Source: Parcubacteria group bacterium (lineage in GTDB: Bacteria > Patescibacteriota > Minisyncoccia > Moranbacterales > UBA11712). From it: a stretch of 64,000 bases of DNA. Position numbers and translations under genes: made by a program. The stretch spans positions 274,228-338,227 of the forward strand of contig JBAZYY010000001.1 of the NCBI GenBank assembly GCA_041659065.1, in the 5' to 3' direction. Positions 32,179-48,549 of the stretch are shown here, in pieces; positions within the stretch are counted from its first letter, which is position 1, and each line of letters starts with the position of its first letter. The notes below the pieces were generated by a model. The model did not search any database. It saw only the letters and a list, made by a program, of their open reading frames with translations, and was not told the origin of the DNA.

Positions 32179-32182
32179 ATTT

Positions 32183-32792: not shown

Positions 32793-33254
32793 TTATGTTT
32801 TTTCCCAGCCATATTCACTGTAGAAAATATTTTTTCGGATGCAATTGATTGCTTGCCTGACGCACGGAATAGTGTTTTCGGGAAGTTTATCCAGCGGAAA
32901 CCATTTTAGATCGTCACATCTATGCGGCTCCAGGTTGCAAGGCTCGCCTTTCCATTTTTGGGCTCTTATAAAAACATCCACTCTTTCTTTCAGTTCGACG
33001 GGATTTGCCTTTTCATATCGATTCATCAAGTGAACGACTTTCATGTCTCCCTTTCTTATTTCCAGACCGGCTTCTTCTTTTGCCTCACGGGCAAGGGTTT
33101 GCCTGAAGGTTTCATTGCCATCGAGGTGTCCCGCTACCAGGCTGTAATTGCCGTCGTTATACCCAGTATTGAATCGCCGAAGCAAAAGGATTTTATCGTC
33201 CTTAAACAGGATGAGATATGCGGCGGGAACAATTCTAAATCTGTCTTTGCTCAT
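32793..33254 (-). CDS. NUDIX hydrolase
   Basis: Nudix box GHLDGNETFRQTLAREAKEEAGLEI. Carries the island-type upstream module. Confidence 0.8.
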   Translation of the reverse strand: MSKDRFRIVPAAYLILFKDDKILLLRRFNTGYNDGNYSLVAGHLDGNETFRQTLAREAKEEAGLEIRKGDMKVVHLMNRYEKANPVELKERVDVFIRAQKWKGEPCNLEPHRCDDLKWFPLDKLPENTIPCVRQAINCIRKNIFYSEYGWEKT

Positions 33255-33265
33255 AGGTTTTTTTA

Positions 33266-33350
33266 TCCCCCGCCGAAATTACGTATTTCCTGTCCGCCTA
33301 TGGATGAAAATACGTATTTTTCTCTCCTAAAGTTCGAGTTTAGGAAAGCT
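33266..33350. repeat. short (deletion-derivative) copy of island intergenic module: CCCCCGCCGAAATTACGTA...AAAATACGTATTTT + 3' hairpin
   Basis: Shares the 5' box and the CCGCCTATGGA..TACGTA tail with copy A. The hairpin TCCTAAAGTTCGAGTTTAGGA lies at 33324-33344. Confidence 0.7.
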
Positions 33351-33376
33351 TAGGAACGCCTGAGAACCATCGATTT

Positions 33377-33925
33377 TTATGTCTTATATTTTTCTTTTTT
33401 TTCGTCGATTTTTTTCTTCATTTCTTTCAGCCGGCCTTCACAGCGCGCGAGCGTTGGAGCCACACCATAGGCTACTCTCAGAGCATTGAAATGATTCAGG
33501 ATCACGTGGGCGTCCATCACCTTGGGATCTTCGACCTCGTGTTTTAAATTATTCACCCGGTAAATTTTATTATTCTCTCCCACCAAGAACGTATAAAGTT
33601 TTTCTCCTACGGCCCTTGATTTCCCGATTTTGATATTAAACCCTTTCCGGTTGGCCAAAAGGCATGTCATCGCAGATACCGTAAAACAATTCCAGTTGGC
33701 TAATTTGCTGCCGTTGAAAAGCGCCTGGATATTTTCTTTTTCATCGCGCATAAAGTGCTTGATCTTATCAAACAGTTCAGCTTCGTCGACGTTTTCTATC
33801 CCGCCCTTTCCAAGGTATTCATCAAAATTATTCTCCAATTCGTCGATAATCGGACCGATACTTAATCCATCCTCAAGTTGTTCGGAATATGTTTTTTCTT
33901 CGAGAGTTTCTTTTATTTTTTCCAT
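33377..33925 (-). CDS. hypothetical protein
   Basis: 182-aa ORF preceded by repeat module copy A and followed by hairpin H1. Confidence 0.5.
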   Translation of the reverse strand: MEKIKETLEEKTYSEQLEDGLSIGPIIDELENNFDEYLGKGGIENVDEAELFDKIKHFMRDEKENIQALFNGSKLANWNCFTVSAMTCLLANRKGFNIKIGKSRAVGEKLYTFLVGENNKIYRVNNLKHEVEDPKVMDAHVILNHFNALRVAYGVAPTLARCEGRLKEMKKKIDEKKEKYKT

Positions 33926-33943
33926 ATTTTAGAAAATTATTTA

Positions 33944-34170
33944 TCCCCCGCCGGAAATACGTACCTAAATACGTATTAAAAATCCGCCGTTTTTCTTTTT
34001 ACCCCAACATTGAATGTTGGTAGAGGTTGCATATCCCCACTGTGTCATAATCATACGGCCGTGTTTAAGTGATACATTTTCGTTTTGGATATTTGTCTTT
34101 ATTCATTCCTGCCGGAATTATATAATTCTTACCCGCCTATGGAGGAAGTTACGTAATTATATTTTTATTC
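33944..34170. repeat. long intergenic repeat module copy A (~225 bp)
   Basis: About 90% identical to 38924-39150. Starts with TCCCCCGCCGGAAATACGTA and ends with CCTGCCGGAATTATATAATT...GTTACGTAATT. Internally contains GTATCA...TATAAT(minus)...TGATAC. Confidence 0.85.
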
Positions 34171-34533
34171 CGACAAAGAATCGGTGGCCAAATTTGGGGC
34201 CCTGCTCCTCTCTGATTATTTCTAGATCATTTTCCGATTCTAAATAACTTTTTACGTTTTCGATATCATCGCCCTTTGGCAGAACATCAACCATGATATC
34301 AGTCATTTCATGCGGAGAATTCTCCATATCAATGACAAAGATTGAATCGGTGACTAAGACTTTCAGCTCTTCTCTTAGTTTTAAAATATTTCTCGCTTCT
34401 CTTCCTTGATTGTTTGTTGAGCCGTCTCAATATCTTTTGACGTGTCGTCTTCGCCAGTCAAGCCTTTTATCCTTTCGGCTTCCTGCAGAGATTTTTCGAG
34501 TGAATATTGTTCCATATAATTTTTTGTTAATTA

Positions 34534-34584
34534 TCCCCCACCGGAAGTACCTGCCCGAAATGCTTTTCAAGGCAGGCGGGCGTA
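34534..34584. repeat. 51-bp direct repeat (left) flanking Fic module
   Basis: TCCCCCACCGGAAGTACCTGCCCGAAATGCTTTTCAAGGCAGGCGGGCGTA; 48/51 identical to 36842-36892. Contains an internal CCTGCC..GGCAGG stem. Confidence 0.85.
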
Positions 34585-34602
34585 TTTGAATGCGTAATCG
34601 CA

Positions 34603-34625
34603 TTCCTAAAGTTCGACTTTAGGAA
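34603..34625. repeat. conserved 3' hairpin TTCCTAAAGT-TCGA-ACTTTAGGAA (overlaps Fic stop codon)
   Basis: 10-bp perfect inverted repeat with no U-run. Same family as 33324, 37655, 39128 and 39264. Confidence 0.8.
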
Positions 34626-35554
34626 TGTTTAAAAGCTTTATTTAACTCCCTGGAAAATTCTCTGACAGCTTCAATATTTAGATTGAGGCTGTGGCCCAAG
34701 ATATCCCTTGTCATCTGCGCTCTCAACTCTTTTTTCTTCTTCTCAAGATTGTTTTTGATATTGTCAGGCAATTCACTTTGTTTCATCAGCATACCATTGT
34801 TATCCATTGGATGACCATATAGTTTTCTTTCTTCTGGTGACATCAGGTCATATGCAGCCAGAAATCCAATTGAATCCAGGTCAAATCCCCACGACTCGCC
34901 TTCCAGCCGGACATTAAATTCATTGTTAACAAAAGCCAAGCTCAGACCTCTTCCTCTGAGCTGATTCGCAAACCAGCCGTAATTGACCACGTCGTGATAG
35001 GTATCTATCTTCATATTCCTTTCGATCAAAATATTTTTGAGATCCTGTTGAAGCGAAGCAGCTTCTTTTTGAATGTCTGGAGAAAACAAAAAATATACCA
35101 GCCTTGCTGTTCTCCCATTTCCATCCGCAAAAGGATGCGTATATATAATCAAGTTATACATTGTGAGGGCAATGGCTTCATTTTTATTGGGATGATCTCC
35201 ATTTGCGATCACTTTCATTTTCTCAAATGTTTCCCGAAAAATTTCATTTTTGTCTTCCATGTCTGGCGGCATGAGATTCACCAAATCGTCGTACCAACCA
35301 TCTACCAGCTTTACCTTTTTGTTTAGAATTTCTCTCTTTGGTGGCTCAATGTCGTTTATTATTCCATTCGTTCTTTTCATGAGATCCAGAAACCGCTCAA
35401 AATCAGAATTCCGAATCAGCTCGATATATACTTCGCTGCTACCCATGTCCCGTTCTCCAACGGATCTTTTCATGAATGTATAAATTTTGTCCGCCCCCCG
35501 ATTTTTCCTGTCTGCAGACTCCTGCTGCTGCTCTTGAAAGTCCTCCAATAACAT
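34619..35554 (-). CDS. Fic/Doc-family protein (AMPylase-type toxin-like)
   Basis: Canonical Fic motif HPFADGNGRTARL (HxFx[D/E]GNGRxxR). Confidence 0.8.
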   Translation of the reverse strand: MLLEDFQEQQQESADRKNRGADKIYTFMKRSVGERDMGSSEVYIELIRNSDFERFLDLMKRTNGIINDIEPPKREILNKKVKLVDGWYDDLVNLMPPDMEDKNEIFRETFEKMKVIANGDHPNKNEAIALTMYNLIIYTHPFADGNGRTARLVYFLFSPDIQKEAASLQQDLKNILIERNMKIDTYHDVVNYGWFANQLRGRGLSLAFVNNEFNVRLEGESWGFDLDSIGFLAAYDLMSPEERKLYGHPMDNNGMLMKQSELPDNIKNNLEKKKKELRAQMTRDILGHSLNLNIEAVREFSRELNKAFKHS

Positions 35555-35611
35555 GTCAATTGAAATTTAATTATCTAATAACGAAAGCAAGGAAATCTTA
35601 TGCTGATATAC

Positions 35612-36493
35612 TCATCCCGTCGCGATCGGCTTCAAGGGTACAATATAATAACTTAGTTTTTCATGACCAATATCCTCATCTTCGATTCTTGTATCAATCG
35701 TGCGCCTCATCTGACTGATTTCAAGGCGAATTGCCTCTCTTATCCTTTCTGGTGTCGCGTGTTTTAAAACAGACAGGCGAAGTTTCTCTTCATCTTCATT
35801 TGAAAAATCAAGTTCTTCCTTTGAAATCTTGTTGAGCACTTGAAACCACAATGCAATTTCCTTTATTGGCGAATCATCTGATGATCTTTCAGGATGCTCC
35901 AACCTTATGACAACAGCTTCATCGTGCCTCGCGTATTTTTTCCAGTACTTTTCAAAAAAAGCTAGGATAGCTTGCTCTTCTTGTGGTTGCAAATTTTTGC
36001 GTCCGTATTTCAATTCCTCTTCGCTTCTGTTTTTCCATTTTTCTATCCGCATTTTCAAATATTTGAGAGCATCTTCATAATTTCTGTTTCTGAAAGACTG
36101 CTCGTGTGAAAATTTCGAAGTAAACTGGTCAAACCATTCAGGTGAACCTTCGGCATAGCTATAAGCGGCTTCCGCATCTCCCGTAACAAATATCTTGTCC
36201 TCACTATTCAGCTTATACCACCCGAAAGTCTGCTCACTTTCACCGATTCGCTTCATTATTGAAATCATTTCTTCAATTTCGTTGCACTCAAAATCTCTTC
36301 TCTCTCTGCTTAATCCATGCTCCCTGATGCCCTCAAGCGCACTGAGATTCGTTCCGTGAAAATAAATTTCCATCACGCTTTGCAAAATGCGTTCTGCGAT
36401 GACCAATGATCCTTCAATATTTTCACCGAATTTATTTCCTATGATCCGCTCTGCAAGTTGGATATATACATCCGTAAGCCCGTAGCTATTCAA
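35612..36493 (-). CDS. hypothetical protein, co-operonic with Fic
   Basis: 293-aa ORF, 57 bp upstream of Fic. Confidence 0.5.
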   Translation of the reverse strand: MNSYGLTDVYIQLAERIIGNKFGENIEGSLVIAERILQSVMEIYFHGTNLSALEGIREHGLSRERRDFECNEIEEMISIMKRIGESEQTFGWYKLNSEDKIFVTGDAEAAYSYAEGSPEWFDQFTSKFSHEQSFRNRNYEDALKYLKMRIEKWKNRSEEELKYGRKNLQPQEEQAILAFFEKYWKKYARHDEAVVIRLEHPERSSDDSPIKEIALWFQVLNKISKEELDFSNEDEEKLRLSVLKHATPERIREAIRLEISQMRRTIDTRIEDEDIGHEKLSYYIVPLKPIATG

Positions 36494-36822
36494 GCCTTCG
36501 CTTTTTCCGCCCCATTTGGATATTCTCGAAATTGCGTCTTTTTATTGAAATTGATATTCCCAATGACATCAGGGATATAAGCGGACTCCTTTCCATCCCC
36601 GGTTATGGAAAGTGCGCTCAAGCAGGCTGAAACGGCATGCCTCAGGGCAAGCTTATCCTCACATCTCAAAAATATACCCTGAAACTCCTTCTTCTTCAAG
36701 ATGAGGGGATCTCTGATTGAGTCATTTGAATTTTTCTCTCCTTGATTTGAAGATCCACTTTCTTTTTTCTTCACAGTAGGAGCTCTTGACAGACTTTCTT
36801 TTTTATCAAAAATGTTTCCCAT
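36490..36822 (-). CDS. hypothetical protein (first gene of Fic operon)
   Basis: 110-aa ORF overlapping the next gene by 4 nt (translational coupling); island module lies upstream. Confidence 0.45.
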   Translation of the reverse strand: MGNIFDKKESLSRAPTVKKKESGSSNQGEKNSNDSIRDPLILKKKEFQGIFLRCEDKLALRHAVSACLSALSITGDGKESAYIPDVIGNINFNKKTQFREYPNGAEKAKA

Positions 36823-36841
36823 AATTGTTGCAATAAAAATG

Positions 36842-36892
36842 TCCCCCGCCAGAAATACCTGCCCGAAATGCTTTTCAAGGCAGGCGGGCGTA
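36842..36892. repeat. 51-bp direct repeat (right) flanking Fic module
   Basis: TCCCCCGCCAGAAATACCTGCCCGAAATGCTTTTCAAGGCAGGCGGGCGTA. Confidence 0.85.
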
Positions 36893-36924
36893 ATTAATTA
36901 GGTGATTTTTTTGATTCGTAACAT

Positions 36925-36975
36925 TTAGCTTAGAGAGCATTTATTGTGTCATAATCATACGACCGTATTATTGTG
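36925..36975. repeat. partial copy D of long repeat (GTGTCATAATCATACGACCGT...)
   Basis: Aligns to the TGTATCATAATTATACGGCCGTGTTTA core of copies A, B and C. Confidence 0.6.
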
Positions 36976-36981
36976 ATGCAA

Positions 36982-37539
36982 TTATCTTTTGAAAAAATGC
37001 CCTTTAAGGGTGGCTTCATTGTCGATGCTTGTGGTAGTGACTATCCTGACGTAGGGACCGGCCGAATAGAGCGAAACCAATTCCTGAATGGGTTTTTCGA
37101 ACGGATATGGTGAAACAAAGACGCTATGCTGGAGCTTCAAAAATTTGAGTGTCCGCAAATGCTCGCGCAAAATATCACGGAACAGCCGATTTTTCTCAGG
37201 AATGTCAAAAAGGACAAGTCGCCATTTTCCGTCCCAGCGCTTCGGTTTTTTGAATCTAATGGAACTCCCCAGGAGACTCAATATCTTTGCCTCTCGTCTG
37301 CCTCTTGTCGTCAGAACCAATCTAAAAGATCCGTCAGGCAACTTCTTCTCTTCAAGCAGCTTCTCTAAAGACAAACGGCGCAAAGAACGGTTGAAATTGC
37401 GCTGGTCTATTTTTTTCCATTCTGACCGCAGCATGCGCAACGTCCGATAATATTGCCGGGGAGACCGGGAAAAACCAAGGGCGAATCCGCCTGAAAGGCT
37501 GAGGAGTATTTTCTTTTGCACCGGGCCGAATTTATACAT
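36982..37539 (-). CDS. PaaX-like putative transcriptional regulator (wHTH + Cas2-like-fold C-terminal domain)
   Basis: KRWDGKWRLVLFDIPE...LRTLKFLKLQHSVFVSPYP resembles PaaX_C. The N-terminus is basic and wHTH-like. Confidence 0.45.
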   Translation of the reverse strand: MYKFGPVQKKILLSLSGGFALGFSRSPRQYYRTLRMLRSEWKKIDQRNFNRSLRRLSLEKLLEEKKLPDGSFRLVLTTRGRREAKILSLLGSSIRFKKPKRWDGKWRLVLFDIPEKNRLFRDILREHLRTLKFLKLQHSVFVSPYPFEKPIQELVSLYSAGPYVRIVTTTSIDNEATLKGHFFKR

Positions 37540-37542
37540 ATT

Positions 37543-37650
37543 CTCATTGTATCATAATTATACGGCCGTGTTTAGATGATACATTTTTGTTTTGGATATT
37601 TGCCTTCACTCATTCCCGCCGGAATTACGTAATTGGTTACGTAATTCCCC
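37543..37650. repeat. long repeat copy C (3' two-thirds), with two AATTACGTAATT-type palindromes
   Basis: CATTGTATCATAATTATACGGCCGTGTTTAGATGATACATTTTTGTTTTGGATATTTGCC...CCCGCCGGAATTACGTAATTGGTTACGTAATT. The minus strand gives TATAAT 17-22 nt upstream of the PaaX-like ATG. Confidence 0.8.
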
Positions 37651-37654
37651 TGAA

Positions 37655-37675
37655 TCCTAAAGTCCGATTTTGGGA
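37655..37675. repeat. 3' hairpin TCCTAAAGTCCGATTTTGGGA (degenerate copy)
   Basis: Same family; lies immediately after the stop of the PRTase-like gene. Confidence 0.6.
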
Positions 37676-37688
37676 ATAACTAGGTTAC

Positions 37689-38495
37689 TTATTTCCGTGG
37701 TTTTTGGATTCCTAAAGATCTCAATGTCGCCAAGATTTTTTTCTTTATCTCAGCGACTGTCTTGAATTCCAGTCTGAAGTCATTCTCGTCTTTTCTATCT
37801 TTATTTCCATAAGCCGTATTGTGGCGAGTATGTATATTGCCTCTTGATCCCGTATCGTGAACATACAAATGCGACCAGGCATGTGAAAAGAGTTGCGTTG
37901 CCACAATGTCGAAATGGATTTTGAAATTTTTGTCATTTTTTATTTTTTCCAGCATCATTTGATGATGATCGTCGCTGCCTGCTGCATTATTGCCAGCGCA
38001 TGACAACGCAAAATAAAATATATTATCAAATCCCTGACGGCAATCCTTAATCATTTTGAGCGTCGCCGCTCCTTCACCATCGGATATTGTTTCATCGACG
38101 AAAAAAACTTTTTTATTCGCCAAATGGCCGACATTATTCTCGATCAAGGATTCATTTAATAAGGTCATGTTTATGTACGCCATTTTTAGATTTTCATCAT
38201 TAAAAAACTGAATTTCAGGCATTTTCTGCAAATTCATTTCCTGGAGATATTTTTTCATGGGAGTTCCGAACATGCGCGCGCCTTTATCCAAAAAGACAAT
38301 TACGTCCGGTTGCTCCTTAAAAATATTAACAACTAAGTCCTTAAGAGCTGGCCGAATAAGCTCCAGATCGGATTCGGCCTCTTTGATTGCATCCTCGTAC
38401 AGATTTGCCAGCAGTTCCTGTTTTTTTTGATCAGTTAAGGTGTTTTTTCTTTCTATTGCGTTTCCTTCCATAGCTATGTATCGATTTTTATACAA
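37689..38495 (-). CDS. phosphoribosyltransferase-like domain protein
   Basis: KKVFFVDETISDGEGAAT resembles a PRTase PRPP-binding loop. Weak call. Confidence 0.35.
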   Translation of the reverse strand: MYKNRYIAMEGNAIERKNTLTDQKKQELLANLYEDAIKEAESDLELIRPALKDLVVNIFKEQPDVIVFLDKGARMFGTPMKKYLQEMNLQKMPEIQFFNDENLKMAYINMTLLNESLIENNVGHLANKKVFFVDETISDGEGAATLKMIKDCRQGFDNIFYFALSCAGNNAAGSDDHHQMMLEKIKNDKNFKIHFDIVATQLFSHAWSHLYVHDTGSRGNIHTRHNTAYGNKDRKDENDFRLEFKTVAEIKKKILATLRSLGIQKPRK

Positions 38496-38571
38496 GCGAG
38501 TCTTTTACCCACTTTAGGAATTCCAGATTTTCATAGAATTTTCTAACATTAAATGTGAGAACGGGTTACTC

Positions 38572-38904
38572 CTAAATAACATTGTACGGTCCTCCGATGT
38601 TGAGTAGATCCGCAAAAAATACAAGAATTGGGGTCAAAATAAAATATAGGCCGAGCAGCCAAAAAATCCACCGCAAAATGTGTCCTTTTCCACCTTCTTT
38701 ATAAATTATCCAGTATATCCTTACGCAAAGAATAAGGATAAACAAAACCGCCAATTCGATCGCTGCGTTCGGGCCATGGATGGTCATGAAACATGCCGCA
38801 CAAAGCATTATGGAAAAGATATAAGTATAGAAAATGGCCACTATATAAAACAAGACAAGCGTTAGCAGCGCATAGCCGATAAATCTTAGGATTGGTTTCT
38901 TCAT
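38572..38904 (-). CDS. small integral membrane protein
   Basis: Three TM helices; repeat copy B lies upstream. Confidence 0.5.
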   Translation of the reverse strand: MKKPILRFIGYALLTLVLFYIVAIFYTYIFSIMLCAACFMTIHGPNAAIELAVLFILILCVRIYWIIYKEGGKGHILRWIFWLLGLYFILTPILVFFADLLNIGGPYNVI

Positions 38905-38923
38905 ATTTTTTGTTTAAAAATTT

Positions 38924-39150
38924 CCCCCCCGCCGGAAATACGCAATCGAATACGTAATAAAAAATCCGTCGTTTTTCTTTTTACCCCGACATTGAATATT
39001 GGTAGAGGTTACATATTCCCATTGTATCATAATTATACGGCCGTGTTTAGGTGATACATTTTTGTTTTGGATATTTGTCTTTATTCATTCCCGCCGGAAT
39101 TACGTAATTAAATATGTATTTCTTTTATTCCGAAGTTTGACTTTAGGAAC
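38924..39150. repeat. long intergenic repeat module copy B + hairpin TTCCGAAGTTTGACTTTAGGAA (39128-39149)
   Basis: About 90% identical to copy A over about 200 bp. Contains the AATTACGTAATT perfect palindrome. Confidence 0.85.
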
Positions 39151-39263
39151 GGTTAAGCCATTCTACGCGCTTTTGCAAATAGTGTTTGTCGTAAAGGCCA
39201 GTTTCTGCGATTTTATCTGCCAATGATTTTAGTTTCTCTAATATATAACTGTGTGTTTTTTTA

Positions 39264-39286
39264 TTCCTAAAGTCGGACTTTAGGAA
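39264..39286. repeat. 3' hairpin TTCCTAAAGT-CGGA-CTTTAGGAA
   Basis: Perfect 9-10 bp inverted repeat, the last copy at the island/R-M boundary. Confidence 0.8.
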
Positions 39287-39568
39287 TGATTAATACTGTG
39301 AAACCTCGCAAAGGAATTGATAATCTGACACCTATGGAGAAACTGATTGAATATTTTTATCCGACGGAATTGTAAACAACGCTCTTAATTCTTACAGATT
39401 ATATCTTATGTTTAATCTAATTATAGCCTTTTTATAAACAAAAACCAGTCCTTTCGAGCTGGGAAAACTTCGCGCTATTGGACTGTTTTTCATCCACGTC
39501 CCCGTCTGCCAATTTAGGAGAAAAAGCTGGAAAATCACGCTTTGTTTTTTTGTCATGCGACAACTGTA

Positions 39569-39736
39569 TTATCTGTCACGCCAAACATATATATAGCCGG
39601 GAGGCGCCGGGGGCTTAGGTGGTTTTGGAGGTTTGGGCGGCCGCGGTGGACGAGGTGGTCTTGGTGGTCGCGGAGGCTTTGGCGGTTTTGGCGGAACCAA
39701 TGGACCCCGTGGATCTTTTGTTAATTTCCATGGCAT
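39569..39736 (-). CDS. 55-aa proline-rich (PP[KR])n repeat peptide
   Basis: MPWKLTKDPRGPLVPPKPPKPPRPPRPPRPPRPPKPPKPPKPPAPPGYIYVWRDR. AAGAAAGGAGGTGA Shine-Dalgarno sequence lies 8 nt upstream of the ATG. Not in the ORF track because it is under 60 aa. The listed plus ORF 39542-39724 is its antisense artefact. Confidence 0.6.
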   Translation of the reverse strand: MPWKLTKDPRGPLVPPKPPKPPRPPRPPRPPRPPKPPKPPKPPAPPGYIYVWRDR

Positions 39737-39796
39737 AATTATTTCTCACCTCCTTTCTTAATCATTTTTTCAACTTTATCTGTTTATACGGATAAA

Positions 39797-41415: not shown

Positions 41416-41417
41416 AA

Positions 41418-43007
41418 TTATTTCTCAATAAAATCAATGAATTCTTTCTTCTTATCTTCTGTTAATTTTCCTGATTTCAATTGGTTAAGAATTTCCAGTG
41501 GTTTATCTCTTTCCTTTTCATCGAACTCAACATATCTTTCCAATGTATCTGGAAATTTTTTAATATCAATAGTAAAAATATTTTTATCATCAAATATTTC
41601 TTTATTCCTTTCTTTGTGTTCTTCGTTTTTGTCGCCATCCCCATCAAATAAAACACTATGTTTAATACCAAATTCCAAACATAGACTCATAAACCTTGGT
41701 ATATTCCACTTGCCGCCACAATCAATAATATAAACATTCGCGTCTACATTAAAATTTTGAATTAGATAGTTAAGAAAAACTTTGTCAGTTGAACCTTCAA
41801 CTAATATAACCTTATCAACAAAAAACATTGTATTTCTATCCGGATTTAGCCAAAGAACAAAACTAAAGATGTCTTCCTCTGTCTTGAGCTGATCTAAAAA
41901 ATTTTGACTGGCTTTGAATATTTCCGTTTCAGTATTTTCTTTCACATAGCGAAAGATGCTGAAAAGTGCGTTGCTCTTCGTGGTAATAAGATTTGGTGAA
42001 TGTGTACACAAAAATATTTGACTAGATCCAGATTTTGCTATTTCTTCTAAATTTTTAAGGAGTTTCTTTTCCTGGTCATAGTGAAGCAATGATTCGGGCT
42101 CCTCATATAGCAATAAAGTAAGATCTCCACTGAATATTTTTTTACTAGCTTTCTTTTTTTTACTTTCAACTTGAGCCCATAATAGCAACAGGCTGTTGAC
42201 GATTGACCTTTGCGCACCTGATCCAAGGGTCAGGGGGTCTTCCTCTTGACCCGTATCCTCAGACAAAAGTTTTAATTTTGAGCCTGAAATAATTATATCC
42301 TCCGGTGTTGGCGGTGAAATATCAATTTGAGATCGCAATCGCCAAGACGAAAGCATTTCCGTTAAACTTTCTTCGATTTCATGCACACTCTTTAAGTTGC
42401 CTTCTCCGCTATCCTTTATAGGACTTTTCAAATCATTCGTAAATTTTTTCACTTCCCTAACCAAATCATTCCATGAATCTAATTCTACTAAAGCTTCAGA
42501 AAGTATTCTGCTTATGAGTTTTGTAAAGATTGAAGATTTTGTTTTCTTTAACTCTTCGCTCAGATCTTTTACTGCTGGAATGTATATTATGTCGCCCAAC
42601 TTTCCCACAGGAACATTCTTATCCCCAAAAAATTCACTCTCTCTTTCCTTTATGATTCCACCTTTAATTTCAAACCCATGAAATTCACCTTTTAATTTTT
42701 CCTTGGTAAATCTCTTAACGACTTTTAGCCTATTATTTGGTAATTTATAAAATTCTGGCAACTGTGAAAACTCTTCTTCATGAAGCTCATATTCTAGGGT
42801 AATTTCGATAGGCGCAGAACTGCAGCTTCGACAAAAATCCTCAACAGTCACATTATAATCAGCATAAAATGCTCGAATAGCATGAATGACTGAAGATTTT
42901 CCCGCATTATTTTGACCGATAAATGTCCAAATATCATCTGTTGGACCACTCAAATTTGCGCTTTTGATGGATCGAAAATTTTTTATTTCAATTTCCTTTA
43001 TCTTCAT
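41418..43007 (-). CDS. OLD-family ATP-dependent endonuclease (ABC-type ATPase + TOPRIM; class 1 OLD / fused PARIS-like)
   Basis: Walker A GQNNAGKSS; Walker B LLLYEEPE; TOPRIM VILVEGSTDKVFL...FDGDGD (E...DxD). Confidence 0.7.
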   Translation of the reverse strand: MKIKEIEIKNFRSIKSANLSGPTDDIWTFIGQNNAGKSSVIHAIRAFYADYNVTVEDFCRSCSSAPIEITLEYELHEEEFSQLPEFYKLPNNRLKVVKRFTKEKLKGEFHGFEIKGGIIKERESEFFGDKNVPVGKLGDIIYIPAVKDLSEELKKTKSSIFTKLISRILSEALVELDSWNDLVREVKKFTNDLKSPIKDSGEGNLKSVHEIEESLTEMLSSWRLRSQIDISPPTPEDIIISGSKLKLLSEDTGQEEDPLTLGSGAQRSIVNSLLLLWAQVESKKKKASKKIFSGDLTLLLYEEPESLLHYDQEKKLLKNLEEIAKSGSSQIFLCTHSPNLITTKSNALFSIFRYVKENTETEIFKASQNFLDQLKTEEDIFSFVLWLNPDRNTMFFVDKVILVEGSTDKVFLNYLIQNFNVDANVYIIDCGGKWNIPRFMSLCLEFGIKHSVLFDGDGDKNEEHKERNKEIFDDKNIFTIDIKKFPDTLERYVEFDEKERDKPLEILNQLKSGKLTEDKKKEFIDFIEK

Positions 43008-43015
43008 GATATTTC

Positions 43016-43330
43016 CTATTTATAAACCACACTGCTCCGCAGTTCAAACGCATCTACCCCCAAAATAATCGCCGCGAAATCAATCAGCCAATGATAGATC
43101 CGTCCATAGGTTGCATTGAAACCGCCGAGTTGCCTATTTTTGTATTCATCAATGAAATTCCACAGTTCTTTTTCCAAATCAATCCCTTTTTGCAAAATCT
43201 TCTCGGCAAACTCCGGCAAAGCTTCGCGAAAATATTTTTCCCGCTCCGGCGTATGTCCATATTGATCAAAAAACTGCTGATTGAAATTCTGGATTTCTTT
43301 TCCCATTTTTGTTTTTGCCTCCTCGGTCAT
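43016..43330 (-). CDS. hypothetical protein
   Basis: 104-aa ORF packed between the GIY-YIG and OLD genes. Confidence 0.45.
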   Translation of the reverse strand: MTEEAKTKMGKEIQNFNQQFFDQYGHTPEREKYFREALPEFAEKILQKGIDLEKELWNFIDEYKNRQLGGFNATYGRIYHWLIDFAAIILGVDAFELRSSVVYK

Positions 43331-43359
43331 ATTTTTTTGTTAATTTTTATTTTGCGGTT

Positions 43360-43614
43360 TTACCCTATTAAGTAAGATTTGAGCCTGTTTTTTATGTATC
43401 TCTTGTCGTAAATTGTTTTAAGATATTTCTCTCTTTTGGTGGCATCTTGTTGATTTAGACAAGCTTCATAATAAACAAGGTTTAATGGCCTTCTGTCTTT
43501 AGTAGAATCCACTAGCCCTTTGTTATGTTGCTCAAATCTTAATTTTAAATTTTTAGTATAACCAACATAGTTTTTGTTATCTTTTAAGCTTCGCAAAACA
43601 TAAACGTATCGCAT
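43360..43614 (-). CDS. GIY-YIG nuclease superfamily protein (stand-alone, YhbQ-like)
   Basis: MRYVYVLRSLKDNKNYVGYTKNLKLRFEQHN matches the GIY..YIG..R..H core. Confidence 0.7.
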   Translation of the reverse strand: MRYVYVLRSLKDNKNYVGYTKNLKLRFEQHNKGLVDSTKDRRPLNLVYYEACLNQQDATKREKYLKTIYDKRYIKNRLKSYLIG

Positions 43615-43655
43615 GCTAGCTTGGCAAAAATTTAAAATTTACTTAATAGGGTGAA

Positions 43656-46010
43656 TCACCACTCGATTTTTCGCATATAATCCAACGCGGTTTCCATTTT
43701 TCCATCATCCACCAAGACCTTCCCATCTTTGTCGATTCGATAGAGCTCGTTCGGCATTGGTTTTTCGCCGCGCTTGGTACGCTTGTAACCGACGTTTTCC
43801 ACTTCCGCCATGAAAATTTTGTAGTTGAGCTCGCGGGCCACTTCGCCAAAAACCCACCAGGTGTTCACGAAGCCAAAAACATCTTTCGTATCGTTGTCAT
43901 ACTTGCAAAGATCTTCGAGTTCCGAGGCGTATTTTTTTGCCAATTCTCTCGCAGCAAGCTTCTGATCATCTTTCTCGACGTAATTTTTGAGCATCCTGGA
44001 GAGAACTTCTTTTTCTTCTTTTTCCTTCAATCCTTTGACTGACGGTAATTTATTCCTATTTTTTCCGTTCAAATATACTTCGGCCAAATTTTCACACCTA
44101 GTCCTAAGATTTCCCCATTCGTTTCCATATTTTTTCCAAAGTTCGTCCCATTTTTCAATTTCCGATTTGGCTTTCTTCTCGGCGAAGAGCAAGCTCGTTT
44201 TGGTCGAAGTGAATGGTTCAAAGGTAACTTGCGGGAGTGACACCACCGCTTTGACTTTGAAATATTTGTAGATAAAAAGACGGATATATTTGTTTTCTGT
44301 CGTGTCGAAAACGCTTTCCGGCAAAACCGCGCCCAACCGGCCGCCATCTTTGAGCAGTTGATACCACCTTTCCACAAAAAGATTCTCACTATTTTTCTTG
44401 CCGCCGAAAATAAATTCTTCTTTGACATTGTCTTTGGTGTCTTTATCCAAATCGACGCTAAATGGCGGATTGGTCACGATAATGTCAAATTGCTCATTCA
44501 CCTCTTTGTCAAAATATTTCTTGTCACTTTTTGATTGTTGCAGCTTGTTGGAATAGAAATTGAAAGGCAAAAGCCCGTCTTTCACATAGATATTGGCCGA
44601 GCCATCGCCATGCAAAATCATATTCACTTTTGTAGCTGTCCCCAAATTGAAATTTATATCCGTTCCATAAATATATTCCTCCGCCCATTGATTTTCCAGA
44701 TTATCGGGATAGAACCAGCTTTGCATCTTGTTTTCAATATTTCTGGAATTTTCTATTCCATCCTTGAATCTGCGCTTGATGTTTTCAGTGATAAACTTCA
44801 TGTATTCAATCAGAAAAGTTCCACTGCCGGCGCTCGGATCAATTATGTAAGGAAGTTTTTGATTATTATTGATGTTGGAAATGGCCAGTTTGTCCGCCTG
44901 CAAGCCCCACAGCAAAAACCTCACCACATTTATATGGGTAAAAAATTGTCCTTTTGTTTGTTTGAATCCGTCGCGAATTATTCCCTCAAAGAAATCTCCC
45001 AGAATATCTTTTCCGTTAAAACTATTCTTCCCGTCCACGAAGGAATAGCCCTCTAGTTGCGACACTGCGTACTTAAGTTTAGAGAGAGGAAATTTGTTTT
45101 CATCGACGATATAGGATTTTTTTAATTTGACTTCGTCCGTGATTCCCAGCCTCTCCTGCAACGCTCTTCTGTAAATCTCGTTTATTCTTTCAAAAAGCTG
45201 TTCGTTGGTTTCAAAACTTTTTCCGTCTTCAAAAGAAAATATTTGAAATCCATATTTTTCTCCTTGTCTTCGCTCACTCTCATCCTGGATTTTGGCCAAA
45301 ATGATATTGACCAGCGAAGAAAAAATATCATTATCATCCGTGCCGCCGCCGCCCCAAAGCACATTGTGCAAATTCTTACTCAGAGAATCAAGATTTTCGT
45401 GAGTAAAGCTTGTTTCCAAATCTTTCTCTCCTCCTTTCACATACGGCTCTTTTTGTGCTTTGCCATATCTGACCGGCAGCTCGTCCGCAAAATCGCGCAC
45501 TTCCTTCCAGGAGCTGAAGGAGGAAAATTTTTCATAGTCAATCAAAATGCACTTGTCTTTTATTTCATTTTCTATTATTTCAAAAGTATAGAGCGTGAGA
45601 TATTTAACTTTCTTTCCTTGGCCTTGTTCTTGTGAAGCTAGATTAAAAAGCTGTTTTTCAATAACCTCATCTTTGTCTTTTTCATAGTCTTGAGGACTTT
45701 TGAGTTCAACATACAAAAATGCGTCGCCTTTGTCATCCCTGACAATGATATCAATTCTCGGTTTGTTTACTTTTGGTCTTCCGATATCGTATTCTTTTTC
45801 AAGTTCGATGTTTTCCGGTTTATATCCGAGTTCATTTACTAATTTAGCAAGAATATATGCTCGAACAATTTCCTCGTCGCCTTTGAATTTTTCGATTTTC
45901 CAACCCTTTATTTTTTCGGAATATTTGACTTTTTTATTTTTAAAATCATAGGCTTCAACAACCTTTATTTTTTGACTATCGAGACATTTTTCAATTAATT
46001 GTGTATTCAT
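43656..46010 (-). CDS. hsdM: gamma-class N6-adenine DNA methyltransferase (HsdM-like) with N-terminal HsdR_N-like PD-(D/E)xK domain (BcgIA/type IIG-like architecture)
   Basis: Motif I IIDPSAGSGTFL; motif IV IVTNPPFSV. The N-terminal RIDIIVRDDKGDAFLYVELKSP resembles the HsdR_N nuclease motif. The ORF extends to a GTG at 46055; the first ATG is at 46010. Confidence 0.7.
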   Translation of the reverse strand: MNTQLIEKCLDSQKIKVVEAYDFKNKKVKYSEKIKGWKIEKFKGDEEIVRAYILAKLVNELGYKPENIELEKEYDIGRPKVNKPRIDIIVRDDKGDAFLYVELKSPQDYEKDKDEVIEKQLFNLASQEQGQGKKVKYLTLYTFEIIENEIKDKCILIDYEKFSSFSSWKEVRDFADELPVRYGKAQKEPYVKGGEKDLETSFTHENLDSLSKNLHNVLWGGGGTDDNDIFSSLVNIILAKIQDESERRQGEKYGFQIFSFEDGKSFETNEQLFERINEIYRRALQERLGITDEVKLKKSYIVDENKFPLSKLKYAVSQLEGYSFVDGKNSFNGKDILGDFFEGIIRDGFKQTKGQFFTHINVVRFLLWGLQADKLAISNINNNQKLPYIIDPSAGSGTFLIEYMKFITENIKRRFKDGIENSRNIENKMQSWFYPDNLENQWAEEYIYGTDINFNLGTATKVNMILHGDGSANIYVKDGLLPFNFYSNKLQQSKSDKKYFDKEVNEQFDIIVTNPPFSVDLDKDTKDNVKEEFIFGGKKNSENLFVERWYQLLKDGGRLGAVLPESVFDTTENKYIRLFIYKYFKVKAVVSLPQVTFEPFTSTKTSLLFAEKKAKSEIEKWDELWKKYGNEWGNLRTRCENLAEVYLNGKNRNKLPSVKGLKEKEEKEVLSRMLKNYVEKDDQKLAARELAKKYASELEDLCKYDNDTKDVFGFVNTWWVFGEVARELNYKIFMAEVENVGYKRTKRGEKPMPNELYRIDKDGKVLVDDGKMETALDYMRKIEW

Positions 46011-46047
46011 AATTTTTTTATGCAAAGTCCTAGGGCAGCGTGGTAAT

Positions 46048-46080
46048 ACTATCACTATATCACTATTATTATATCACTGC
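46048..46080. promoter_or_regulatory. three TATCACT direct repeats upstream of the MTase gene (candidate operator)
   Basis: TATCACT at 46050, 46058 and 46072, between the AbrB-like gene and hsdM. Confidence 0.35.
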
Positions 46081-46101
46081 AAGCTTTTTCCTGTGGATAA
46101 A

Positions 46102-46278
46102 TTACTTTTTCCAATCCCTAATCACCACCCCGCCTTTAATTTTTTTGACCACCACTTTCTGCTTCTCCCGCCAGCCGAGTTCGCGAACAAGTTCAATCGG
46201 CAAGGTGAGGCCGATTGATTTTTTGCCAATCTTCGTCAACTTGCGGATGTTTGTTTCGCCAGCTTTTTTAGTCGGCAT
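46102..46278 (-). CDS. AbrB/MazE/SpoVT-family DNA-binding protein (antitoxin-like or controller)
   Basis: GKKSIGLTLPIELVRELGWREKQKVVVKKIKGGVVIRDW matches a swapped-hairpin AbrB domain. ATG at 46278. Confidence 0.6.
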   Translation of the reverse strand: MPTKKAGETNIRKLTKIGKKSIGLTLPIELVRELGWREKQKVVVKKIKGGVVIRDWKK

Positions 46279-46346
46279 ATTTTTTGAAGTAAGCAATTAA
46301 TTACTTAATTCCTTGAGTTCTTCAAATATTAAGCTCGTCCATAAGC

Positions 46347-46745
46347 CTATTTCCAATTCATTTGCGTGATCGTCAGTTGGAGGATTGTCGCGAAGATGAC
46401 CCACAAAAGATATGGGATGTTTACCAGCGCAATCCATTTTGCATGGGGATAGATCGCGACCATCGCCCAGATAAGCGTTCCGAGGACGAGCAAAATATCA
46501 ACCGCTGCGAGGAGATTATTTTGGAGCCGGAATTGGATGGGCGAAAAGGCGAGATTGAAAACGAGGTTCAGGATAAACGGCAAAAGGACGAGAAAAGTTA
46601 TCCGGCCTTGGAAATACAAATAGCCGGCCGCGCCGAACGAAACGGCAATGACTGCGTATAAAACCGACCACACCGGGCCAAAAAGCCACGCCGGCGGCGC
46701 CCAGGAGGGTTTCGAAAGATTTTGATACCAAGTTTGAGTATCCAT
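46347..46745 (-). CDS. tspO: TspO/MBR tryptophan-rich sensory protein
   Basis: WYQNLSKPSWAPPAWLFGPVWSVLY N-terminus with five TM segments. Confidence 0.8.
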   Translation of the reverse strand: MDTQTWYQNLSKPSWAPPAWLFGPVWSVLYAVIAVSFGAAGYLYFQGRITFLVLLPFILNLVFNLAFSPIQFRLQNNLLAAVDILLVLGTLIWAMVAIYPHAKWIALVNIPYLLWVIFATILQLTITQMNWK

Positions 46746-46787
46746 TTTTTGTATATTTGCGCCTTTATTCTATCCCAAAACCCGCTT

Positions 46788-46835
46788 TTTTTCAAATAAA
46801 AAAGGCCTCTCTACTTTGAGGCCGGTGGTGGTTTT
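46788..46835. terminator. bidirectional intrinsic terminator (GGCCTCTCTACTTTGAGGCC hairpin flanked by A- and T-runs); member of the TTTCAAATAAAAAAGGCCTCTCTACTT repeat family
   Basis: Hairpin at 46804-46823; A-run at 46794-46803; GGTGGTGGTTTTTT downstream. Confidence 0.55.
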
Positions 46836-46871
46836 TTCCAGTTGGTTTAATGAGCAAAGTTGCGAGCCTCC

Positions 46872-47159
46872 TTAATACCCAGATCGTTTTCCTTTTTTAG
46901 GCAGGCCCTGTCGAATCTCTCGGGCAAGGTCGAAGATTTGTCGCTGGATATGGCTTTTGCCTGCCGTTTCAACGCTGAGCGTCTCGAGCTTTTTCAGCGC
47001 ACTCTTCAGGGAATTCAAACTCGGACTCGGACTCGCAAGGGTCGTAGTTACATGATCCATCAGTTGGGCTAACTCTTCCCTTTTGGGCGATGCATAGTTT
47101 TCCTCAATGAGGACTCTGACGCCTTTGGCACTACTAGCTAAGTCTGGGTTAATTTGCAT
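46872..47159 (-). CDS. hypothetical protein
   Basis: 95-aa ORF, GC-richer than its surroundings. Confidence 0.4.
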   Translation of the reverse strand: MQINPDLASSAKGVRVLIEENYASPKREELAQLMDHVTTTLASPSPSLNSLKSALKKLETLSVETAGKSHIQRQIFDLAREIRQGLPKKGKRSGY

Positions 47160-47177
47160 CAGGAACTCCTTTTTTCG

Positions 47178-47360
47178 CTAGAGCCGCATTAACGAACAGT
47201 CTCCAAGCCTCATTTCACATTCTTCGCAAGGTGCTCCCTGCCTGGATCTCTCGGGGGTATTAGGACCTCCGCAAAATGGACAGCGTCGACGATGCCAGGT
47301 GCCTTTTCGACCTCCGCGAGACAACCGCATTCTTGGAGACAGTTGCTCTTTTTTTGCCAT
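47178..47360 (-). CDS. small zinc-ribbon protein (CPFCGG...CEEC)
   Basis: 60 aa with a GGGAGG Shine-Dalgarno sequence 8 nt upstream of the ATG. Confidence 0.45.
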   Translation of the reverse strand: MAKKEQLSPRMRLSRGGRKGTWHRRRCPFCGGPNTPERSRQGAPCEECEMRLGDCSLMRL

Positions 47361-47464
47361 CGTGGCCCTCCCATCACTTGAAATAGAAAATTCTGGCTAT
47401 TGGGTTTAGACGCTATTCCGGACTCTATTATCTTGGCTTGAAATTAGTTTAGCTTATAATGCCC

Positions 47465-47518
47465 TTTTTTTCAAATAAAAACCCCTCGGGCGGTTATGCC
47501 TCCGGGGCGTCATTTTTT
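47465..47518. repeat. variant copy of TTTCAAATAAAAA terminator-like repeat with GC-rich imperfect palindrome
   Basis: TTTTTTCAAATAAAAACCCCTCGGGCGG..CCTCCGGGGCG..TTTTTTT. Confidence 0.35.
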
Positions 47519-47848
47519 TCCTTTCGATGCTGCAAGCTTCATCCAGCCTCTGAAAGTTTCGCTGAGGAAAAAACTGGCAGCTTTTTCAGGATCGATGCTG
47601 TGACCCCATTCCCAGGCCTCGTTTTCATTAAAGAAAGGAGGGTTATCCTTCAGAAAAAATCTGAAAGAGGGTCGCTTTTGGCAGCATTTAGCGATTAATG
47701 TCGAAAGAAACATGTCTCTCCATCGAGTGGCGCTGGCTTTGTCGGAAAAATAGCTGGCGCTGACATAAGCAAAAAAGGCGCCATTGTAGAATTCAGCGAT
47801 GAGAACCGCCTTCCAGAAAAACTCCTCTCCTACCCGCAGAACTTTCAT
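47510..47848 (-). CDS. hypothetical protein
   Basis: 112-aa ORF. Confidence 0.4.
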   Translation of the reverse strand: MKVLRVGEEFFWKAVLIAEFYNGAFFAYVSASYFSDKASATRWRDMFLSTLIAKCCQKRPSFRFFLKDNPPFFNENEAWEWGHSIDPEKAASFFLSETFRGWMKLAASKGKK

Positions 47849-47904
47849 TTTTTCCTCTCTGAAGGTGTTTGGGCTTAATGTTACAAACGAACTGTTTCAT
47901 TTTT

Positions 47905-48300
47905 TTATTCATCGTCCATCATTATTCTCTTTATTAGCGCTGCTATGCGTCCGTTGGTCGATAAAGACAGCGTGACCGCTAAGTACCGCTTGGCAATACG
48001 TCTCGGATCGCCAGGCTCGATGAACTCGTCATTAATCAGATCAAGGTCATCATCTATAACGCTACTTGGCTGACAGTCATCAATATTCGGATAGGCCAGG
48101 CTGGCTTCGAGAATCCCCTCGAGAAATTCGATAGTCCATGCGTTAAGAGTTTCTTTCGAATAAAAAGGGCCGACATTTATCGCTATGCAGTCGTAGCTGC
48201 CATCGCGATAGATGATATTAAAGGCAAGTATTGCCTGCTTCGGATTTAAGAAAAATAGCTGTCCCACGATCTCCTCCTTTTTCAGGCAGATATTTTCCAA
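47905..48300 (-). CDS. hypothetical protein
   Basis: 131-aa acidic ORF. Not RimM-like despite lying between khpA and trmD. Confidence 0.4.
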   Translation of the reverse strand: MENICLKKEEIVGQLFFLNPKQAILAFNIIYRDGSYDCIAINVGPFYSKETLNAWTIEFLEGILEASLAYPNIDDCQPSSVIDDDLDLINDEFIEPGDPRRIAKRYLAVTLSLSTNGRIAALIKRIMMDDE

Positions 48301-48337
48301 TAAGTTCCCTAAAATAAACTAGCAATAATCCTCTTAT

Positions 48338-48364
48338 TTTTCAAATAAAAAAGGCCTCTCTACT
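48338..48364. repeat. third copy of TTTCAAATAAAAAAGGCCTCTCTACTT
   Basis: 27/27 identical to 46786-46812. Confidence 0.7.
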
Positions 48365-48469
48365 TCCGCGGTAACCGCCCTTTATTTTTAAGAAAATTAA
48401 ATTTTAACTCTTTAGAAATGATTTTATAAAAGATTCCATTTCGCTATTTTCTTTTTTTTCCTGATCATT

Positions 48470-48516
48470 TTAAAAAACCCAAACAAAAACCGCGCATATT
48501 TGATAGCACGGTTTTT
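48470..48516 (-). terminator. putative intrinsic terminator after khpA
   Basis: ACCGCGCATATTTGATAGCACGGT imperfect hairpin with A/T runs on both sides. Confidence 0.4.
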
Positions 48517-48549
48517 GCGTAAGATAAAGTCCAAAAAAAGACTTATAAG

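Follow-up and report, generated by a model that had tools for sequence, protein, structure and literature searches.

We analyzed a 64,000-nucleotide (nt) stretch of DNA (hereafter, the window) from a Moranbacteria-like member of the candidate phyla radiation (CPR), represented by a metagenome-assembled genome (MAG), in which an island of accessory and defense genes lies between the housekeeping genes khpA and trmD. The island (32185 to 48477; ~16.3 kb) is on the minus strand, and each of its genes has the same orientation as the backbone. We consider it likely that this is a real mosaic island, built stepwise from at least three blocks (A, B, and C) with nested insertions, and not one integrative element. 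In a one-genome-per-species collection, the TrmD proteins most similar to that of the window (identity of 85% or less) belong to Candidatus Moranbacteria/Moraniibacteria and other Patescibacteria MAGs, and the sources label the island's own proteins "Parcubacteria group bacterium."

Limits of the island and its insertion site

The limits were set by alignment to 11 relatives carrying the rnc-smc-rpsP-khpA...trmD-ftsW-murG-murC backbone and to an empty-site contig (L092). Homology to the 11 relatives is lost at 48478 to 48483 and returns at 32178 to 32184. L092 represents an exact empty site: both homology edges lie 3 to 4 nt apart, and the trmD ATG comes immediately after the hairpin at the 3' end of khpA. 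On the basis of these edges, we place the island at ~32185 to 48477. An original prediction, made from the sequence alone, stated that rpsP and khpA are parted from trmD by about 16 kb of same-strand accessory genes, and the Pfam identities and the minus-strand orientation of all of the intervening open reading frames (ORFs) bear this out. Its island start (32793) had left out a GNAT gene (32183 to 32707) and is corrected here to ~32185. Both junctions between island and backbone, along with several internal segments, are matched at 100% identity by contigs from three other assemblies. The backbone features next to the island are as follows:

51950 to 52672, minus strand: rnc, backbone gene (Pfam)
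49552 to 51855, minus strand: smc (short), backbone gene (Pfam)
48975 to 49445, minus strand: rpsP, backbone gene (Pfam)
48550 to 48903, minus strand: khpA, backbone gene (KH_KhpA-B; E = 4e-22)
48487 to 48514, minus strand: khpA 3' hairpin/terminator, AAAAACCGTGC-N10-GCGCGGTTTTT, the right-hand anchor of the insertion site
31501 to 32205, minus strand: trmD (tRNA_m1G_MT; E = 2e-58), with a probable ATG at 32178

The trmD start at 32178 agrees with a 225-amino-acid (aa) gene call in contigs L084 and L086 and with the alignments to relatives, which begin at this position. The genes ftsW, murG, and murC follow trmD (Pfam). A perfect match to TTGACA-16-TATAAT (48972 to 48945) is a candidate khpA promoter by consensus match only.

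The inserts found in relatives all lie between the khpA hairpin and the trmD ATG, and the hairpin is kept even in empty-site genomes. This hairpin (RNA fold, -26.6 kcal/mol; z = -5.2) was found immediately 3' of khpA in 19 loci and has a single copy in the window. Coupling within the "operon" was already loose, since khpA ends in a conserved terminator of its own. The 13-bp stem is nearly invariant in sequence across genomes whose proteins share only 60 to 80% identity, and in empty-site genomes the trmD ATG lies within a few bases of the hairpin. Such conservation exceeds what a plain terminator needs, and the hairpin could be a regulatory or processing site.

The position of rimM is held by the 174-aa GNAT acetyltransferase (Acetyltransf_3; E = 2e-22), the stop codon of which precedes the probable trmD ATG by 4 nt. 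The median khpA-trmD gap in CPR relatives (~109 bp) leaves no room for rimM, and the gap in Firmicutes-type loci is 480 to 620 bp (RimM was verified there in L054 only). Thus, the statement that rimM normally lies between khpA and trmD does not apply to these CPR relatives, in which its absence is the norm and not specific to the island. The cluster resembles the rpsP-khpA(ylqC)-rimM-trmD-rplS operon of model bacteria in that rpsP and khpA are adjacent and trmD is next in the ancestral arrangement. It differs in the lineage-wide absence of rimM, in the terminator hairpin that khpA has of its own, and in the presence of ftsW-murG-murC instead of rplS after trmD.

Occupancy of the site in relatives

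We surveyed 83 informative relatives (i.e., KhpA or TrmD at least 60% identical). The two genes are <350 bp apart in 56 of them, deep branches included, 15 carry inserts of 0.35 to 2.5 kb between khpA and trmD, and in 12 the partner gene is not within 3 to 10 kb. The expected synteny, in which khpA is directly followed by rimM and trmD, was therefore found for trmD and not, in CPR, for rimM. The cargo in relatives varies by lineage and includes PemK/MazF-like toxins (PemK-like in L001, L093, and L095), an S51 peptidase, NYN nucleases, an AbiEii toxin, DUF3800, a small S-adenosylmethionine (SAM)-methyltransferase, an EEP nuclease, and a PaaX_M protein. The island of the window is the largest insert measured, and its content was found in no relative, only in 100%-identical same-strain contigs. 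The empty sites, the other small cargos at the same spot, and the lack of the same content in relatives uphold the proposed accessory/defense insertion in the rpsP-khpA-trmD neighborhood. The frequencies of inserts of at least 350 bp at the cluster junctions are as follows:

khpA-trmD: 17%
rpsP-khpA: 26%
murG-murC: 33%
trmD-ftsW: 4%
ftsW-murG: 0%

The khpA-trmD site is thus repeatedly used and permissive, but it is not uniquely hypervariable. The label "hypervariable insertion hotspot" was too strong, given the frequencies at the two neighboring junctions (26% and 33%) and the two-thirds of relatives in which the site is empty. Inserts at rpsP-khpA and murG-murC reach 4.4 kb (loci L001 to L166); several junctions of the cluster take cargo, and trmD-ftsW and ftsW-murG almost never do.

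Composition and mosaic structure

The G+C content of the backbone is 42.7% (minimum for a 6-kb backbone chunk, 39.5%). Block B (39970 to 46010) has a G+C content of 35.6% and a tetranucleotide distance of 0.0239, compared with a backbone maximum of 0.0125; its OLD, S, and GIY-YIG genes are at 30 to 33%. Block A (46011 to 48549 as measured) is within the backbone range (43.8%), and block C (32206 to 39969 as measured) is marginal to it (39.9%). The island is therefore a mosaic in which only the restriction-modification (R-M)/OLD core, i.e., block B, is clearly foreign by composition. The compositional difference expected between island and flanks was present for block B (35.6% versus 42.7%) and not for blocks A and C, which lie inside the backbone range or at its margin. 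The small ORFs described as GC-richer are so, by a modest amount (44 to 53% versus 42.7%).

Block B, a BsaXI-like Type IIB operon

Block B (roughly 7 kb) has the gene order TspO, AbrB/MazE-like gene, R-M fusion gene (RM), 104-aa partner, OLD (in a variable slot), S, and 52-aa ORF, as follows:

46347 to 46745, minus strand: TspO/MBR membrane protein (TspO_MBR; E = 1e-30), first gene of block B
46102 to 46296, minus strand: AbrB/MazE-like small putative DNA-binding protein (MazE_antitoxin; 22.8 bits, just below the cutoff)
43656 to 46010, minus strand: BsaXI-like RM subunit, 784 aa, with its real start ATG at 46010
43354 to 43654, minus strand: GIY-YIG mini-element, 301 bp, right after the RM stop, with 22-nt inverted repeats (I13)
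43360 to 43614, minus strand: GIY-YIG ORF, 84 aa (GIY-YIG; E = 1e-15), the sole ORF of the mini-element
43016 to 43330, minus strand: h104, 104-aa helical partner, conserved after short BsaXI-like RM genes
41418 to 43007, minus strand: OLD-family ATPase-TOPRIM nuclease, ~529 aa, in the variable slot between h104 and S
39970 to 41415, minus strand: S subunit, 481 aa, with two target recognition domains (TRDs) (PDB 8w0p_C; E = 2e-117; residues 10 to 479 onto 9 to 473)
39797 to 39955, minus strand: h52, 52-aa ORF, last gene of the block

The block recurs at another chromosomal site, beside dnaA-dnaN, in a different contig (L167), with 78 to 89% identity. The homologs there include TspO (81%), the MazE-like gene, RM (89%), the 104-aa ORF (87%), and, after S, the 52-aa ORF (79%), and homology between the two blocks stops at 39794. 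The S subunits share only 31% identity, the central and C-terminal regions being conserved and the TRDs different. RM homologs are 75 to 89% identical across contigs labeled Parcubacteria, Patescibacteria, and Peregrinibacteria, while the TrmD proteins of those groups are ~55% identical. Since RM is more conserved than TrmD across these groups, the comparison argues for horizontal spread, and block B is probably a horizontally spreading BsaXI-like Type IIB operon with an exchangeable slot.

The RM protein aligns with BsaXI (PDB 8w0p_A; E = 1e-276) over residues 4 to 761 (6 to 775 of 916). It is an N-terminal PD..ExK nuclease fused to an N6-adenine methyltransferase, and the D87..E-L-K, DPSAGSG, and NPPF motifs are intact. 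The "R-M S/M pair" of the original prediction thus stands for S, and the supposed M is a nuclease-methyltransferase fusion, the RM subunit of a BsaXI-like Type IIB system. RM ends where the paddle of BsaXI begins. More than 100 homologs are 784 to 800 aa long, so RM is not truncated, and the idea that the GIY-YIG insertion cut it short can be dismissed. A structural study of BsaXI describes short (paddle-less) and long classes and reports that paddle residues of BsaXI are needed for cleavage (PMC11997821); the RM of the window fits the short class.

BsaXI (PDB 8w0p; PMC11997821, PMC9159934) and the window share an RM fusion (PD-(D/E)xK nuclease, helical connector, gamma-type N6-adenine methyltransferase, and knob) and a separate S subunit with two TRDs, and both subunits align over nearly their full lengths. 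In contrast to BsaXI, the RM of the window is short (784 versus 916 aa), lacks the C-terminal paddle, and is followed by the conserved 104-aa helical protein. Inserted genes lie between RM and S, and the TRDs are different from those of BsaXI.

The h104 gene directly follows the RM gene in L167 to L171 (69 to 87% identity; e.g., L167 12392 to 12706, L169 11519 to 11830, and L170 7443 to 7757). Its AlphaFold2 (AF2) model (predicted local distance difference test [pLDDT] score, 88) shows five helices packed into a compact bundle, a fold without a significant match in the PDB. A role for h104 as the BsaXI paddle in trans was considered and set aside, since phmmer against the PDB gave no BsaXI match even at E values up to 1 and the modeled bundle matched no PDB fold. 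In L167, L168, and L169, a homolog of the AbrB/MazE-like protein is encoded immediately 5' to RM, and this protein is a putative controller of the RM gene. No MazF/PemK toxin partner for it was found in the island; its neighbor is the RM gene.

The slot between h104 and S holds a 172-aa ORF in L167 and a 62-aa ORF plus Abi_C in L170; L172 lacks the 104-aa ORF and has a 319-aa ORF between RM and S. In the window, the slot is filled by the OLD gene (G+C content, 33%; G+C content at third codon positions, 28%), which encodes AAA_15 (E = 2e-30; residues 1 to 341) and OLD-like_TOPRIM (E = 1e-16; residues 395 to 457) domains and matches the PADLOC Old model (E = 3e-57), with 6p74 as its best PDB match. 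Its neighbors are h104 and the S subunit, and there is no adjacent UvrD/PcrA helicase, retron, or AriB partner. The protein is class-1-like. It shares with class 1 OLD proteins (P2 Old; Thermus scotoductus OLD, PDB 6p74) an ABC-type ATPase (Walker A, GQNNAGKS) and a C-terminal TOPRIM domain in one polypeptide without an adjacent UvrD-like helicase, but it is only a distant relative by sequence (TOPRIM part, E = 6e-14) and is set inside an R-M operon. It may serve as a second defense layer in the exchangeable slot. PrrC in EcoprrI is a defense gene embedded in an R-M operon. The pattern of defense genes inside R-M operons is also known from TgvAB in the VPI-2 Type I R-M operon (PMC11411939). 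As in these systems, a second nuclease-type gene (OLD) lies between modification and specificity genes in a slot that varies among homologous operons. In contrast to the TgvAB and PrrC settings, the host operon here is of Type IIB and not Type I, and the embedded gene is class-1-like OLD.

A PADLOC scan of the island returned Type IIG/II/I methyltransferase models, Specificity_I, and Old, with weak SoFic/PDC-S04 matches. RM was also considered as a member of the MADS system and discarded (MAD2, 181 bits; cutoff, 720).

The GIY-YIG mini-element has invaded the block B operon. It is a clean insertion that is absent at the same site in L167, L169, and L170. Three further GIY-YIG elements with inverted repeats were found (L114 4537 to 4806, L160 5064 to 5315, and L015 5175 to 5453). 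These elements consist of a 78- to 92-aa ORF between inverted repeats of 14 to 20 nt (the copy in the window is given as 22 nt), compared with ~10 matching bases for chance pairing, as in L169. The repeat sequences differ between copies and keep their complementarity (e.g., CACCCTATTAAGTAA/TTACTTAATAGGGT versus CCCCGCCCTTTGAAATTATT/AATAATTTCAAAGGGCGGGG). They may represent a family of small mobile elements or a stem structure that joins one end to the other.

Blocks C and A

Block C consists of four transcription units with shared promoter/operator modules, as follows:

37689 to 38904, minus strand: transcription unit 1, membrane protein h110b and PRTase-like protein (module 39023 to 39058)
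38572 to 38904, minus strand: h110b, hydrophobic sequence, membrane protein
37689 to 38495, minus strand: phosphoribosyltransferase (PRTase)-like protein (Pribosyltran; E = 6e-4, below the cutoff)
36982 to 37539, minus strand: PaaX_M/Cas2-like-domain regulator, 185 aa (PaaX_M; E = 9e-22; module 37548 to 37583 just upstream of the ATG)
34619 to 36822, minus strand: transcription unit 3, h110a, h293, and Fic (module 36945 to 36980)
36490 to 36822, minus strand: h110a
35612 to 36493, minus strand: h293
34619 to 35554, minus strand: Fic protein, Fic311 (Fic; E = 1e-7)
32183 to 33925, minus strand: transcription unit 4, h182, Nudix, and GNAT, leading into trmD (module 34041 to 34076)
33377 to 33925, minus strand: h182
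32793 to 33254, minus strand: Nudix (NUDIX; E = 5e-17)
32183 to 32707, minus strand: GNAT, 174 aa (Acetyltransf_3; E = 2e-22)
34041 to 34076, 36945 to 36980, 37548 to 37583, and 39023 to 39058, minus strand: promoter/operator modules TGTATCA-N22-TGATACA, enclosing TATAAT/TATGAT
33325 to 33345, 34604 to 34624, 37655 to 37675, 39128 to 39148, and 39265 to 39285, minus strand: hairpin TCCTAAAGT-N3-ACTTTAGGA, after gene ends, in block C only

The repeated modules that had been proposed for the island are real: CATAATYATACGRCCGT occurs in four copies (0.03 expected), CCCGCCGGAAWTACGTA boxes occur seven times (0.2 expected), and TACGTAWTTCCGGCGGG boxes stand before start codons five to seven times. 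Within the window, the modules, hairpins, and boxes are confined to 33.2 to 39.3 kb. Module copies of 153 nt keep a decayed start codon of the regulator gene (ATG TAA) and are therefore duplications of the promoter region of that gene. PaaX_M homologs in L003 and L141 have their own, looser palindromes directly upstream. On the basis of the duplicated modules and of the palindromes in L003 and L141, we infer that the PaaX/Cas2-like protein is an autoregulated repressor controlling block C, the four units of which would express orphan proteins from duplicated copies of its promoter/operator. An exact TGTATCA-N20-24-TGATACA sequence had no match in 86 other loci. The regulator lacks the full PaaX architecture, having PaaX_M only (TIGR02277, 36 bits versus a cutoff of 264; 185 aa versus a profile of 279 positions). 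In L003, a gene for a PaaX_M homolog (62% identical) is found immediately after murC.

Most of the originally listed gene identities were confirmed (Nudix, Fic, PaaX_M, OLD, GIY-YIG, TspO, and S), and two are weak, the PRTase-like (E = 6e-4) and AbrB-like (22.8 bits) genes both being below their cutoffs. The PRTase-like gene was also considered as ComFC and this reading was rejected, as it has no zinc-ribbon motif and no NCBIfam match. The Fic protein has an intact active-site motif of the form HxFx(D/E)GNGRxxR (HPFADGNGRTAR at residue 140); no inhibitory (S/T)xxxE(G/N) motif was found in Fic311, h293, h110a, or the small ORFs nearby. Only two distant homologs of Fic were found among 5.8 billion proteins, and a conserved context was rejected, since these two are located in unrelated contexts.

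No strong terminator was found ahead of trmD in a consensus scan. With the khpA terminator and a terminator-like site inside the island (46823 to 46804), trmD-ftsW-murG-murC would likely be transcribed from an island promoter, most likely from the 34041 module through GNAT.

Two further sequences are present in block C. Between two TCCTAAAGT-N3-ACTTTAGGA hairpins, an ORF remnant (39150 to 39260, minus strand) looks like a decayed gene unit of the block. A 55-aa proline-rich ORF (39569 to 39736, minus strand; ...PPKPPKPPRPPRPPRPPRPPKPPKPPKPPAPPGYIYVWRDR) has a strong GGAGGTG Shine-Dalgarno sequence 8 nt upstream and no homolog in any fetched locus, and it could be a genuine proline-rich peptide or a stalling leader.

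Block A carries orphan small ORFs, which are also called as genes in independent assemblies (L081/L082; G+C content, 45 to 53%) and for which no Pfam or PHROGs family match was found. Its features are as follows:

46830 to 48477, minus strand: block A, orphan small ORFs
47905 to 48300, minus strand: h131
47510 to 47848, minus strand: h112
47178 to 47360, minus strand: h60, with CxxC pairs
46872 to 47159, minus strand: h95
46765 to 46802, with copies at 47444 to 47481 and 48314 to 48351, minus strand: terminator-promoter cassette (repeat family D7)

The cassette at 46765 to 46802 is associated with the terminator-like site at 46823 to 46804 and with a TTGAAA-17-TAGAAT consensus match at 46795 to 46767.

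Origin of the island

The most economical account of these data would be that the island grew stepwise, by recombination at an intergenic site that tolerates insertion, with acquisition after DNA uptake through the conserved flanks and no site-specific integrase. The co-orientation of the genes would also be expected of one integrative element (i.e., a degraded prophage, an integrative and conjugative element, an integrative mobilizable element, or an integrase-borne island) that inserted at an attB near khpA and later lost its integrase, and the strongly conserved 28-nt hairpin next to the insertion point could in principle be a recombination site. However, the Pfam scan of the island ORFs found no integrase, recombinase, transposase, or relaxase domain, the whole window contains no tRNA or Rfam family, and no direct repeats or att sites were found at the island ends, which share T-runs only; the search for integrase or att remnants that accompanied the original prediction thus came back empty. 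A phage origin was rejected, because ten orphan island proteins have no PHROGs match and no relatives of the GIY-YIG gene were found in viral contigs. The composition is mosaic, block B stands alone elsewhere in the chromosome in L167, and relatives hold unrelated 1- to 2.5-kb cargos at the same point. A single element is therefore quite unlikely. It is very unlikely that the content is ancestral and was lost by relatives from a deletion-prone stretch, although blocks A and C are near the host composition and the streamlined genomes of CPR bacteria tend to lose genes. Fifty-six of the 83 relatives, deep branches among them, have an empty site where the hairpin abuts the trmD ATG; no relative has any block A or C gene between khpA and trmD; and block B is foreign in composition, its RM being more conserved across phyla than housekeeping genes are.

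For block C, an integron-like array of promoterless cassettes with attC-like hairpins, mobilized by a recombinase encoded elsewhere, is suggested by the small same-strand orphan ORFs, each preceded by a box (five to seven copies) and followed by a palindrome (five copies), and by the decayed cassette remnant between two hairpins (39150 to 39260). But no IntI-like gene is encoded in the island. The hairpins, short and perfectly palindromic (9+3+9 nt), have neither the R''/L''-L'/R' architecture nor a GTTRRRY core, and the units have their own promoters, duplicated from the PaaX-like gene, whereas integron cassettes lack promoters; this origin is highly improbable. The MAG source, and block C repeats that fragment other assemblies, raise the question of an assembly chimera in which 16 kb of another organism was joined to the backbone. 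Independent contigs link the island parts and both backbone junctions: L081 and L082 span smc-rpsP-khpA-block A-RM start and L084 to L086 span block C-GNAT-trmD-ftsW, all at 100% identity, and L177 spans GIY-YIG-h104-OLD-S-h52. These contigs argue against a chimera, which we regard as extremely unlikely.

Several points weigh against an island assembled stepwise from foreign defense genes. Blocks A and C consist of orphan genes with host-like composition, so that synteny is the sole evidence of their foreign origin, and the order and number of acquisitions are deduced from composition and one homologous block. The paddle, which RM lacks, holds the cleavage residues of BsaXI, so its competence for cleavage is uncertain (PMC11997821); restriction, methylation, and OLD activity are predictions from sequence, and the promoters and terminators were called by consensus match only. 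The case for strain-level turnover comes from one contig end that could be a chimera. From smc to RM codon 28, a stretch of 4387 nt, that contig (L081; sample 3300014208) matches the window at 100% identity, and it departs at 45928; beyond the breakpoint (L081 4388 to 4780) it carries a small SAM-methyltransferase fragment (54% identical to one upstream of trmD in L093) and then a signal-peptide ORF. An initial reading, in which the first 28 codons of RM were borrowed from the small methyltransferase, was abandoned. Since these residues align to the BsaXI N terminus, L081 is the derived form (a rearranged haplotype) or else a chimera made in assembly.

Genomic islands with R-M systems have been reported in Patescibacteria (PMC12455944). 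Like known defense islands, including these, the island of the window has R-M, OLD, toxin-like, and regulator genes between core genes, a partly atypical composition, and relatives with different cargo at the same place. Unlike them, it has no integrase, tRNA, or flanking repeat, it is a patchwork of blocks at a junction no more variable than two of its neighbors, and its last genes abut, and probably drive, the essential trmD-ftsW-murG-murC genes.

Implications

The island provides a well-delimited case, with an empty-site reference, of an ultra-small CPR genome gaining defense and accessory genes without an integrase beside essential genes. The widespread short BsaXI-like Type IIB family in CPR, with its conserved small partner and exchangeable slot, bears on how paddle-less homologs cleave DNA. 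In other respects this is an ordinary defense/accessory island that opens no long-standing question; the less ordinary leads are h104 and the exchangeable slot, the GIY-YIG elements with covarying ends, and the promoter supply to trmD. We put forward only tentatively, as a possibility with the balance against it, that these leads belong together. The short BsaXI-like operon spreading in CPR would then be a modular "docking" operon with an AbrB-like controller, RM, a 104-aa partner that maybe compensates for the paddle, an exchangeable slot coupled to R-M, and S. It would be parasitized by a previously undescribed class of ~0.3-kb GIY-YIG mini-elements with covarying terminal inverted repeats, and trmD-ftsW-mur would depend on a PaaX/Cas2-like promoter/operator.

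Two of the backbone proteins upstream of khpA have unusual lengths. Ribosomal protein S16 (48975 to 49445) is 156 aa long, with the S16 domain spanning residues 8 to 64 only; the S16 of a relative (L001) has a long Lys/Glu/Ala-rich C-terminal tail, and the extension seems to be typical of the lineage. Canonical SMC proteins are roughly 1,200 aa long. The SMC homolog of the window (49552 to 51855) has only 767 aa, with the SMC_N profile split over residues 2 to 750, and its coiled coil is much shorter than that of canonical SMC.

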